Assembly (NCBI GenBank): GCA_965261025.1 | Contig: OZ253438.1 | Location: forward strand, 1,200,001 to 1,232,000 | Direction: 5' to 3' | DNA from: Chlamydiales bacterium | GTDB lineage: Bacteria; Chlamydiota; Chlamydiia; Chlamydiales; SM23-39 | DNA: 32,000 bases | In this document: positions 6,465 to 8,837 of the stretch, in pieces | How the letters are laid out: each line of letters opens with the position of its first letter | Numbering within the stretch: the stretch's first letter is position 1 | Notes under the pieces: model-generated | The model's input: only the letters and a program-made list of their open reading frames with translations | Database searches by the model: none | Told to the model about the DNA's origin: nothing | Translations under genes and position numbers: made by a program

Positions 6465-8837
6465 GTGTTAAAGGATGTTTCAGTGGACCAGCCAAGGTTT
6501 TTAGGGTTATCTTTTCAGCCTGTGGGGGTTTTTTCTGTCATTCCGAACGCAGAAGTTTTGCACACACCTGTATATTGTTCAGGTAGAGTTTTTTCTCTTG
6601 TAGGAGAAGTTCTAAAAACGCCCTTTCATCATATAGGAGAGCTTTTTCTTAAAACTCTTTCTCCCTTGGATGCTTTTCGAGAGCCTAACCTATGTCAGGA
6701 TGGATCACAAATCCTTGTAAAAGTTGTTTTGGTTACACCTCTTTTGGCTCTTACTATTTCTTCTGTGGCCCTGGCCTTGATAGGAAATTTTTCCTCTGCT
6801 TTCGGGCAGTGGCTTGTTTTTTCCACCAATGTTCCTACTAGGTTAGATAAAGCTATCTATGACTGTAGGTACTATACCCATCAACGGAAAGCACATTCTT
6901 TATCGTTTATCGATTCTGAGAAATGGGAAAAAACGAAGGTAGGAGTAGCTCTTTCTTCCTATCAAAACGCGTGGGATGAGCTATGCAATCTTTTTGCTTT
7001 TCGCTCTGATTGGGATATGGCAAAAGTGGAGCTTCTTCAAAAAAAGGACTTTAACCGGAAAGATACTGCTGGCTTTGGTGTTGATCCGTTCAGGGATCCT
7101 GCGTATTTGTTGCAGTTAACAAAAGGTTTAGGAGCGGAAGTGGTTCGTTCTTCTATAGAGTGGTCTTACTTGATTTCGGGAGATGGGACGCTGAATTTAT
7201 CAGAAATTGATAAAATAGTCTCTTACTTAAGGGAAATGGGTAAGGAGGAAAAGCAGATTCTTCTTACACTTCACCATTTTGTGGATCCAATTTGGTTTTC
7301 TGAATCGGGAGCTTTTGAGACAAGAGAAAATGCACAAGTTTTTGTAAATAGTATAGAGACAATTTTTCGCTCTTTGAGAGATAAGCTATTGGAGCTAGAA
7401 AATGGAGAGGCGCTACTAAAAAGAATAAGTTTTACCACGTTTAACGAACCTACTATCTGCGGGGTGTTTTCGGGCCGTATAATGGGAAATTGGCCTCCTT
7501 TTAAAAGGGGAGATTTTTTGAGAGCTGCTAAGGTTCTTGTAAATATTTTTTGGGCGCATAACCGAATATATGAAAAGATTAAAAAGATAGATGAGGAGAT
7601 TCAAGTAAGTATTGTACATCAGGCCCTAAGCTTTATACCGTACCGTACTTTTGATTCTATTTCAGGGCTTGTTGCGTATTTTTTAAGTCTTTTTACTAAT
7701 ATTTTTGTATCTCTTTACTTAAAAACGGGAAGATTGGATGTTTTTTTTCCCTTTCTTGCTAGAGCTTCTTTGAACGAGCCTCTTAAGACAGATGCTTTTT
7801 ATGTAAACGGCTATGTGCGGCCTCCAATTAGTCTTATTCCCTCTTTTAAGGGGGAAAAACCCACAGCGCCGCCTCTTCCTGGTCAGGGAGACACAGAGAT
7901 GCCTTTTGCTGCAGATCCATTTGCAATAGCAAGCATTTATAAAGAGCTTTATAAAAGCGCGCAAAAAGGAGGGCTTCTTTCTAAGGCAAAATTCGGTATA
8001 ACAGAATGTGGAATTGCTTCTACAGACGAAGAGGGAATTAAAGATTTTTTTATAAAATTGATCTGGGCTTTTAATGAGTTACTGAAAGAGGGATACCCTA
8101 TAGATGTAATTACTTTTTGGTCTTTAACGGATAATTTTGAGTGGTCAGAAGGGTGGACAAAACACTTTGGTCTTATGGGGCTAAACCCTGAAGAGGTGCG
8201 AGCAGATATAGAAAGGCTTATAAATTCGGTTAGAATAAGTTTTCCTGAAATGGAGTCGATCTTAAATGAGATTTTTATGGTTTCTGCTTTGAAAGGAGTA
8301 GAGCCATCAAAAGAGGAGTTATTCTCAGAATTTCTGGTGAAGGATTTCATAGAAGCTTGTTATTCATATCTAGGAAAAGAGCCGAAAGAGGGAAAATTTT
8401 TTCTTGAGGTAATAATTAAGAAGGTAGCAAGGGGAAGTCTCTTGAATATTGAAACGTTATTGGATAAGAATTTTCAAAATTCCTTATTTGCAGAACTTCA
8501 AAGAGAGGTTCCGGGTCTTGAAAAAACAAAGTGGCAAGAGCAGTTAAACGATACCCTAAATAGGGTTAGTTCTTTAGGAGACTTTAATAGAAGGGCTGAA
8601 TTATTCAAACAAGCGCTCTTCTCACGACTGGAAGAAAACGAAGCACCTAATCCAAACCAAAATGATGAATCCCTAGTTCGTAGACTGGAGCGTTACATGA
8701 TACAAAAGTATTGCGAGGGGAGAAATTTTCCAACCAGGCCAGAAACAATTTCTTCTGCTATTTTGATGCAACATTTATCAAAAAGAGTCTCTTTTGAATT
8801 AGTCAAAGAACTCATTTCACGGAAGAAGTCCTCTTAA
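6465..8837 (+). CDS. glycoside hydrolase family 1-like domain protein with N-terminal hydrophobic anchor and C-terminal helical extension
   Basis: 790-codon ORF. GH1 signatures: VALSSYQ, SIEWS, LTLHHFVDP, TFNEP (acid/base Glu328, nt 7446-7448), ITECG (nucleophile Glu514, nt 8004-8006) and WSLTDNFEWSEGWTKHFG. Hydrophobic segment at aa 83-120 (nt 6711-6824). An in-frame TAG at 6459-6461 and no ATG before aa 185 mean the start must be GTG 6465 or GTG 6483 (AAGGA 7 nt upstream). Confidence 0.8.
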   Translation: MLKDVSVDQPRFLGLSFQPVGVFSVIPNAEVLHTPVYCSGRVFSLVGEVLKTPFHHIGELFLKTLSPLDAFREPNLCQDGSQILVKVVLVTPLLALTISSVALALIGNFSSAFGQWLVFSTNVPTRLDKAIYDCRYYTHQRKAHSLSFIDSEKWEKTKVGVALSSYQNAWDELCNLFAFRSDWDMAKVELLQKKDFNRKDTAGFGVDPFRDPAYLLQLTKGLGAEVVRSSIEWSYLISGDGTLNLSEIDKIVSYLREMGKEEKQILLTLHHFVDPIWFSESGAFETRENAQVFVNSIETIFRSLRDKLLELENGEALLKRISFTTFNEPTICGVFSGRIMGNWPPFKRGDFLRAAKVLVNIFWAHNRIYEKIKKIDEEIQVSIVHQALSFIPYRTFDSISGLVAYFLSLFTNIFVSLYLKTGRLDVFFPFLARASLNEPLKTDAFYVNGYVRPPISLIPSFKGEKPTAPPLPGQGDTEMPFAADPFAIASIYKELYKSAQKGGLLSKAKFGITECGIASTDEEGIKDFFIKLIWAFNELLKEGYPIDVITFWSLTDNFEWSEGWTKHFGLMGLNPEEVRADIERLINSVRISFPEMESILNEIFMVSALKGVEPSKEELFSEFLVKDFIEACYSYLGKEPKEGKFFLEVIIKKVARGSLLNIETLLDKNFQNSLFAELQREVPGLEKTKWQEQLNDTLNRVSSLGDFNRRAELFKQALFSRLEENEAPNPNQNDESLVRRLERYMIQKYCEGRNFPTRPETISSAILMQHLSKRVSFELVKELISRKKSS

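Follow-up and report, generated by a model that had tools for sequence, protein, structure and literature searches.

A stretch of 32,000 nucleotides from a Chlamydiales genome (assembly GCA_965261025.1, contig OZ253438.1, positions 1,200,001 to 1,232,000 of the forward strand), which we call the window, carries a gene for a protein with a glycoside hydrolase family 1 (GH1) domain. In this protein (the window protein), the catalytic core is preceded by a long N-terminal extension with a hydrophobic segment, and is followed by a long helical extension. An earlier reading of the letters alone (the original prediction) described these parts, as well as a non-ATG start codon, and proposed a glycosidase displayed on a membrane. 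The open reading frame (ORF) 6465..8837 on the plus strand has 790 codons counted from the first GTG, and the coordinates include the TAA stop codon at 8835-8837. The features of the gene are as follows, with residue numbers counted from this first GTG and with P0002 denoting the syntenic orthologue described below.

6459..6461, plus strand: in-frame TAG that closes the frame upstream of the GH1 gene (sequence inspection)
6465..8837, plus strand: whole ORF including the stop codon, 790 residues; codon scores on this strand are highest in frame 0 for each segment
6471..6485, plus strand: Shine-Dalgarno-like motif AAGGA (6471-6475), spacer of 7 nucleotides and GTG 6483 (residue 7), the likelier initiation codon
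6507..6599, plus strand: N-most region, residues 15-45, common only to the window protein and P0002 and conserved at the protein level
6600..6710, plus strand: amphipathic helix, residues 46-82, ending in FLKTLSP (hE..LLP in the family; LSP at 6657-6665); alignments, 51% identity to P0002
6711..6824, plus strand: hydrophobic helix, residues 83-120, putative membrane anchor; 19-residue Kyte-Doolittle hydropathy up to 2.4, 53% identity to P0002
6825..6929, plus strand: linker, residues 121-155, with YDCRYY (6861-6875; DSRxW in the family); family alignments
6930..8189, plus strand: GH1 (beta/alpha)8 catalytic core, residues 156-575; Pfam, PDB, AlphaFold2, Foldseek and alignments
7446-7448, plus strand: codon of the acid/base Glu328 (TFNEP, residues 325-329)
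8004-8006, plus strand: codon of the nucleophile Glu514 (ITECG, residues 512-516)
8190..8834, plus strand: all-helical C-terminal extension, residues 576-790, found in the window protein only; coding in frame 0

Catalytic core, orthologue and start codon

The Pfam family PF00232 matched the window protein with an E-value of 4.4e-23 and a score of 81.9 bits (cut-off 22.6). In a sequence search of the PDB, 164 GH1 sequences matched at E<1, the best being 1vff (E 2.8e-22) and the next reaching 1e-15. The DNFEW signature lies at residues 556-560 and HFG at residues 567-569, and the catalytic glutamates are 186 residues apart, in agreement with the hallmarks and the spacing of about 185 residues originally reported. 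The match to NCBIfam TIGR03356, the BGL equivalog, was weak (residues 180-573; 82.7 bits against a cut-off of 478.5); judged by these profiles, the window protein is a member of GH1 but not of the canonical BglA/BglB type.

An AlphaFold2 model built from a 91-sequence alignment had a mean predicted local distance difference test (pLDDT) value of 78.9, with values above 90 in the barrel (residues ~155-570). When this model was compared to the PDB with Foldseek, 608 matches reached E<=1e-3; the 50 that were listed are all GH1 structures, with target-normalised template-modelling scores (TM-scores) of 0.67-0.77, and rank 1 among them is again 1vff, at 0.77. The structural check that had been suggested for the barrel was therefore positive. 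We also inspected two family alignments, one of 16 sequences (the window protein and its 15 nearest relatives) and a larger one of 91 sequences. Residues Q167, R228, H271, N327, E328, Y450, E514, W552, E559 and W560 are invariant in the 16 sequences and nearly so in the 91. As assigned from these alignments, the -1 subsite set is present and conserved, i.e., the Gln of strand 1, the His of strand 3, the Tyr of strand 6, the Trp of strand 8 and the Glu-Trp pair of DNFEW. The residue after the nucleophile, Cys in the window protein, varies among N, T, A, C, F and I across the 16 sequences. Because the catalytic pair and the -1 subsite residues are invariant and the Cys position is variable in the family, the enzyme looks catalytically competent, with no sign of a pseudo-glycosidase; the disrupted -1 subsite that had been named as a possible objection was not seen. 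In GH1 enzymes, the DNFEW signature is associated with an unphosphorylated glycone.

An exhaustive search of 1.84 billion cluster representatives returned 1541 matches, among which P0002 (668 residues; E 2.7e-92; aligned to residues 15-569 of the window protein) is the sole close relative, in a set of ~15 billion proteins. The gene order around P0002 is that of the window: a 280-residue hypothetical protein, Kdo hydroxylase (KdoO), rpoN, a family 9 glycosyltransferase (GT9), uvrD, the GH1 gene, an SLC12-like permease and PutA. The GH1 proteins of the two loci are 34% identical, whereas identity of the flanking orthologues is 54-86% (73% for uvrD, 86% for the SLC12-like permease and 78% for PutA). 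Identity to P0002 differs by region: it is 31% for residues 1-45, 51% for residues 46-82, 53% for residues 83-120, 23% for residues 121-155, 35% for residues 156-575 and 10% for residues 576-790. By this comparison, P0002 conserves residues 15-160, and within this fast-evolving protein the N-terminal module is under the strongest constraint. The codon-usage score is normal (0.32-0.38) for the module (residues 46-120) and 0.13-0.22 for the core and C-terminal parts (6930-8834, plus strand), compared to 0.33 +/- 0.08, with a minimum of 0.17, for the other genes of the window. In a word-indexed search, the full protein retrieved only itself, and the family alignment retrieved two fragmentary matches; a scan of a genome-contig collection found no close relative, only GH1 cores of Acidobacteriota and Chloroflexota with 24-29% identity.

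The C-terminal extension of 215 residues is 10% identical to P0002, and only its first ~50 residues are faintly alignable. Its helices have pLDDT values of 55-83 in the full-length model and of 43 when the extension is folded alone, and the word-indexed search detected no homologues of it. It thus appears to be an orphan, lineage-specific region that is essentially absent from the orthologue.

The ORF, the TAG at 6459-6461 and the first methionine, at residue 185, all lie where the original prediction had placed them. The phmmer alignment between the window protein and P0002 begins at residue 15, and residues 15-45 have a local alignment score of 65 with P0002; the scores of 2000 shuffles were 19.9 +/- 3.9, and none was as high. 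Because this region aligns with P0002 far above the shuffles, translation must begin at or before residue 15. The only start options upstream of this point are GTG 6465 and GTG 6483, and P0002 has a single GTG upstream of the conserved region, consistent with the earlier claim of a forced GTG start. GTG 6483 is followed by GAC, and the orthologue likewise starts with GTG-GAC; given this agreement and the AAGGA motif at 7 nucleotides, GTG 6483 is the likelier start, and both candidates are non-ATG. These alignments support an obligatory non-ATG start of the GH1 gene, which is thus a clean case, backed by comparison, of a gene that must start with GTG.

Three other possibilities were rejected: (i) with a start at Met185, strand 1 and its conserved Gln167 would be lost, and the region upstream of it is conserved at the protein level, P0002 being conserved from residue 15 rather than starting at the Met185 equivalent; (ii) an internal TTG or GTG at residues 20-105 as the sole start does not fit with conservation that already begins at residue 15; (iii) a frameshift, hinted at by the out-of-frame ATGs at 6692 and 6700, does not fit with the conservation of frame 0, which also scores best on the strand over the whole length. 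A promoter scan found nothing beyond the shuffle expectation.

The N-terminal module and its family

The hydrophobic stretch of 38 residues (ILVKVV...WLVFS, residues 83-120) is the strongest Kyte-Doolittle peak of the protein, with a value of 2.4 in a 19-residue window, and has the position and length originally reported for a segment within an N-terminal extension of about 155 residues. It includes 21 consecutive uncharged, strongly hydrophobic residues, VVLVTPLLALTISSVALALIG, and holds a conserved proline (VTPLL; LP[LIF] in the family) and a GNFS.A.G.WL motif. In the AlphaFold2 model, three helices precede the barrel (residues 33-65, 76-119 and 126-140), of which the second is one unbroken helix of 44 residues that spans the hydrophobic stretch; pLDDT is up to ~89 at residues 61-70. 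With an identity to P0002 of 51-53%, compared to 35% for the core, this is the best-conserved part of the protein, and judged by such conservation, the N-terminal extension with its hydrophobic segment is translated, as had been claimed. Loss of the segment in orthologues, another possible objection raised earlier, is not observed in P0002, which keeps it at 53% identity.

Representing the module as a series of elements, we define the following plan: a short N-terminus; an amphipathic helix that ends in E..LLP; a spacer of about 12 residues; a hydrophobic helix that has LP[LIF] near its start; in many cases DSRxW (DCRYY in the window protein); and then the GH1 strand-1 motif G.A.S.YQ. This module of ~100 residues can be aligned across at least 25 proteins. 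A profile of the module matches 27 of the 150 best GH1 relatives at E<1e-3, and the five of these 27 that were not used in building the profile have E-values of 6.5e-10 to 1.3e-4. Residues 51-156 of the window protein, itself one of the building sequences, match with an E-value of 6e-17. No credible match was found for the profile in the PDB or for the members in Pfam, a Pfam search with the N- and C-terminal extensions at E<=10 returned nothing, and with the profile, neither the rest of the window nor 11 other loci (of which 10 are related) yielded a further gene that carries the module. On the evidence of these searches, the module is a conserved family feature in front of the GH1 barrel that is new to Pfam and the PDB.

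The original prediction had not recognised this architecture. It is indeed undescribed in Pfam, the PDB and the accessible literature, where searches on chlamydial or Legionella GH1 enzymes or effectors and on the orthologue accessions found nothing relevant and no description of the module fused to GH1; it is, however, not unique, given the combination of module and GH1 in 27 of the 150 relatives. We know of no GH1 enzyme in described Chlamydiaceae biology. The catalytic domain is thus known, and what appears to be new, as judged by sequence comparison, is that it is fused to the module, that this fusion occurs in several Chlamydiota, that there are additional regions at the N-terminus and (an orphan one) at the C-terminus, and that the sequence diverges unusually fast.

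The next-best relatives after P0002 have E-values of 1e-42 to ~1e-25, identities of 29-34% and lengths of ~480-550 residues, with 65-115 residues before the barrel. Among the 150 best matches, a hydrophobic segment is internal, before the core, in 36, lies at the extreme N-terminus in 45 and is absent in 45. The extreme N-terminal group consists of signal peptides, signal anchors or one lipobox-like LVAC, and AxA-like sites occur in it. By this count of predicted segments, the GH1 clade as a whole tends to be membrane-attached or exported. Two examples of anchored relatives that do not belong to the module group are a record from the amoeba Acrasis kona (P0027, KAL0479609.1, on a contig of 66.7 kb) and a cluster of 203 members from marine Euryarchaeota (P0057); these could result from horizontal transfer among hosts, symbionts and archaea, or from contamination of the amoeba assembly. 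Another relative, P0010 (580 residues), has lost the module; its barrel sequence is interrupted directly behind the nucleophile motif ITETG by a highly charged helical insertion of ~130 residues.

The window has a G+C content of ~38%, an adjacency of uvrD and rpoN that corresponds to CT608-609 of C. trachomatis, and homologues of ahpC and groEL. The syntenic block on the P0002 contig (L081) is preceded by a fusion of topoisomerase I and SWIB (topA-SWIB), and such a fusion is a distinctive chlamydial feature (PMC12445093). Synteny with this contig, at protein identities of 54-86%, bears out the chlamydial setting assumed earlier, and by synteny and the topA-SWIB gene next to the orthologue, the window genome, a small one, is assigned to the Chlamydiota. 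Two other carriers of the module also point to this phylum. P0044 is from a Rhabdochlamydiaceae metagenome-assembled genome according to its NCBI name, and the neighbours of P0040 (locus L087) are rho, polA, sohB and a nucleotide transporter of the TLC type (NTT), in the order of CT491-495 of C. trachomatis. The module-bearing GH1 family, as delimited by the profile, spans several Chlamydiota and unidentified metagenomic bacteria. Its presence in a number of chlamydial lineages whose genomes are reduced suggests that these symbionts hydrolyse glycosides at a membrane surface, which would be a retained and, in the window genome, fast-evolving trait.

Several genes near family members should be mentioned. 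A RhoGAP-domain (eukaryote-like) gene at 4197-5636 (plus strand) of the P0044 locus (L091) lies 4 kb from P0044, a SET-domain gene adjoins the family member P0013 (L089), and another family locus has a gene with a Legionella_OMP domain.

Membrane attachment and competing explanations

We consider it probable that the window protein is a membrane-tethered, catalytically competent GH1 beta-glycosidase of the BGPh-like short-loop clade, held by its conserved N-terminal module. Such an enzyme would be a retaining beta-glycosidase with Glu328 as the acid/base and Glu514 as the nucleophile. The module, i.e., the LLP/LSP helix, the proline-bearing hydrophobic helix and the DSRxW-like linker, would tether the barrel to a membrane; hydropathy, conservation and helix prediction suggest that the hydrophobic helix is an anchor in the cytoplasmic membrane of the bacterium itself. 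Since ordinary signal peptides or signal anchors are found at the N-terminus of many close relatives, the catalytic domain would more likely be extracytoplasmic. By analogy with BGPh, the substrate may be an unphosphorylated beta-glycoside with a hydrophobic aglycone (a glycolipid, or a steryl or alkyl glycoside) at the membrane surface. The window genome and one syntenic relative would have gained ~45 N-terminal residues, and the window protein alone would have gained the 215 residues of C-terminal helices.

Among solved structures, BGPh is the best match of the window protein both by sequence and by fold, and the two share the short-loop GH1 architecture; short BGPh-like proteins of ~390-425 residues are also among the top matches. 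The Pyrococcus horikoshii enzyme BGPh (PH0366; PDB 1VFF) associates with membranes and favours glucosides with long alkyl chains, and steryl glucosides are substrates of its relatives (PMC4687101); for these reasons, a lipid-linked substrate is the most economical guess for the window protein. The two proteins also differ: BGPh has 423 residues, is without an N-terminal extension, is ~25% identical to the window protein and belongs to an archaeal hyperthermophile (with relatives in Thermococcales) rather than to a chlamydial symbiont, and the window protein has in addition the N-terminal region of 155 residues and the C-terminal region of 215 residues. The membrane association of BGPh has been attributed to a hydrophobic mound on its surface, not to a helix (PMC4687101).

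Canonical GH1 enzymes, such as BglA of Paenibacillus (1BGA) and BglA of Thermotoga (1OD0), have the same fold, the NEP acid/base and TE(N)G nucleophile motifs and DNFEW, and can be aligned with residues 180-573. They differ from the window protein, to which they are 18-23% identical, in being soluble proteins of ~450 residues without an anchor, and the Trp-containing motif T..GWE.xPxG that precedes their nucleophile is replaced by T.MPF..DP in the family of the window protein. Bacterial GH1 proteins are normally soluble cytoplasmic enzymes of sugar catabolism, and the automatic label "beta-glucosidase" masks the distinctive architecture found here. SghA of Agrobacterium (PDB 6RJK; E 8.8e-15 over residues 216-576, ~21% identity) is a full-length GH1 match and a precedent for a bacterial GH1 enzyme that acts on a host-derived beta-glucoside, but it is soluble, has no anchor module and comes from an unrelated lineage with unrelated biology. 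In eukaryotes, lactase-phlorizin hydrolase (LPH), Klotho and GBA3/KLrP illustrate that GH1 domains can be membrane-tethered and can hydrolyse glycosylceramides. LPH and Klotho have tandem GH1 domains and start with a signal peptide, their anchor being of type I and C-terminal; Klotho is without one catalytic Glu, whereas the window protein keeps both. Searches with the window protein revealed no specific sequence relationship to LPH, Klotho or GBA3/KLrP.

It should be noted that several points weigh against a tethered, extracytoplasmic enzyme. The charges that flank the hydrophobic helix, counted from the sequence, are ~0 on the N-terminal side and ~+3 on the C-terminal side, an ill fit to a type II (N-in, C-out) anchor, and they are mixed across the family; the positive C-terminal flank argues against an extracytoplasmic catalytic domain, or for a hairpin. 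Instead of spanning the bilayer, the helix could lie against the barrel or serve in oligomerisation, and the substrate analogy with BGPh would have to hold at an identity of ~25%. Furthermore, divergence of the GH1 gene greatly exceeds that of its neighbours and its codon usage is atypical, a combination that would equally be expected of an effector under diversifying selection or of relaxed constraint.

The first alternative, along the lines of the original prediction, is an effector of type III secretion resembling the inclusion-membrane (Inc) proteins: the N-terminus would carry a secretion signal, and the hydrophobic segment would form a hairpin in the host-derived inclusion membrane, with the GH1 domain facing the host cytosol and cleaving host glycolipids such as glucosylceramide. 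We regard this as unlikely. The context of the genome is chlamydial, the segment lies 80 residues in rather than at the N-terminus, and the GH1 gene outpaces its neighbours in evolution, as genes of host interaction often do; a positive C-flank with a neutral N-flank is also easier to reconcile with a hairpin whose two ends lie on the same side than with a type II anchor, and a gene with a RhoGAP domain is found near one family member. Inc proteins resemble the window protein in being chlamydial, with a hydrophobic domain tens of residues from the N-terminus and helix-rich flanks. However, they are defined by a bilobal hydrophobic domain of 40-60 residues, with two transmembrane helices of 15-32 residues and a short loop (PMC3048545). 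The segment of the window protein is shorter, at 38 residues, and only ~9 hydrophobic residues follow GNFSS, the sole candidate for a turn, although lobes as short as 15 residues occur in some predicted Incs (PMC3048545). In the AlphaFold2 model, the region forms a single uninterrupted helix (76-119), so that the segment, originally described as possibly bilobed, is not clearly so, and by hydropathy and structure prediction the proposed Inc hallmark does not agree with the published definition. A large enzymatic domain and a module family conserved in sequence further distinguish the window protein from Incs, and a bilobed domain itself gives no guarantee of localisation to the inclusion (PMC3048545).

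The family points in the same direction. In most of its members the segment has 16-36 residues, and the signal peptides or anchors of close relatives are of the plain Sec type. Because marine Euryarchaeota and the amoeba record also belong to the wider anchored clade, anchoring is independent of the chlamydial type III secretion system.

A second alternative is an ordinary exported enzyme, periplasmic or on the surface, in which a Sec signal with a long n-region would be cleaved after SSA (residues 111-113; SLA in the orthologue), freeing a soluble GH1 domain. Both orthologues do have such a small-x-small motif (S-S-A or S-L-A) after the hydrophobic core, and classical signal peptides are present in many relatives. 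In a Sec signal peptide, however, the hydrophobic core would be expected within the first ~30 residues, followed by an AxA site, and here it lies ~70-80 residues in, behind residues that are translated and conserved, unlike those of a signal peptide. The segment is also better conserved (53%) than the core (35%), whereas signal peptides usually diverge fast, and the AxA-like site is not kept across the module family. We therefore hold this explanation, which the original prediction had listed among its own possible objections, to be very improbable.

Finally, a hydrophobic helix that serves as a structural or oligomerisation helix or as a lid of a cytoplasmic enzyme, or a gene that is a decaying or pseudo-enzymatic remnant, is highly implausible: the segment is interrupted by charges and looks amphipathic in several members (P0024, P0040 and P0013), BGPh binds membranes without a transmembrane helix, and identity to the orthologue is low and codon usage atypical, but the window protein has 21 uncharged, strongly hydrophobic residues in a row, its ORF of 2.4 kb is intact at 38% G+C, as is that of the orthologue, and all catalytic residues are kept.

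The membrane-tethered glycosidase, if it acts on host or bacterial glycolipids, would be a new enzymatic activity at the interface of host and symbiont, and the window protein is an easily assayable candidate, with a clear core and two glutamates to mutate. One can go a step further and imagine the module as a new membrane-targeting device of obligate intracellular bacteria, which would place the GH1 domain in the membrane of the host-derived vacuole or at the bacterium-host interface, where the enzyme would strip the sugar head-group off glycolipids of the host (glucosylceramide and steryl or other lipid beta-glycosides). This extension strikes us as decidedly doubtful; if it were true, the vacuole membrane would be remodelled or sugar harvested, and both the rapid divergence and the C-terminal helical domain would be adaptations to host factors.

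Other genes of the window

The gene that follows the GH1 gene (8860-11124, minus strand) encodes a transporter of 754 residues, in which a core of the amino-acid permease type is combined with a C-terminal domain of the SLC12 type. In NCBIfam it is closest to TIGR00930, a family of eukaryote-type K-Cl cotransporters (E 3e-99, a score below the cut-off), and its 86% identity to the orthologue is the highest in the block. At the other end of the block, the hypothetical protein of 280 residues (148-990, plus strand) has no Pfam or NCBIfam match. It contains a Phe/Leu-rich hydrophobic domain of 45 residues (residues 162-206), FFLFLFAFSPFLFLGFSPFLGLCSFLGFLLLFGFSLIRLAYY, whose length fits the bilobal domain of Incs better than that of the GH1 segment; its counterpart in the same position of the P0002 contig is 54% identical. 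A longer ORF at 19631-23503 (plus strand, 1290 residues) also has no Pfam or NCBIfam match and contains one hydrophobic segment (residues 976-997). The only RNA gene detected in the window is a tRNA-Arg(ACG) at 27960-28033 (plus strand).

A chitinase-like gene of glycoside hydrolase family 18 (GH18; 16328-17299, minus strand) overlaps by 4 bp a gene for a class I S-adenosylmethionine-dependent methyltransferase (15474-16331, minus strand), and both products have signal-peptide-like hydrophobic N-termini (MWYKIFFWMILLSSTFSL... and MRKIVFVSLFFLMTGHLRAEV..., respectively). A predicted exported methyltransferase beside a predicted exported GH18 protein is unusual for a reduced chlamydial genome. 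The rpoN gene is flanked by a Kdo hydroxylase gene (1005-1961, plus strand; PF11004, E 8e-84) and a heptosyltransferase-like GT9 gene (3246-4226, plus strand). Both are conserved on the P0002 contig, which suggests modification of the inner core of lipopolysaccharide in this chlamydial lineage.

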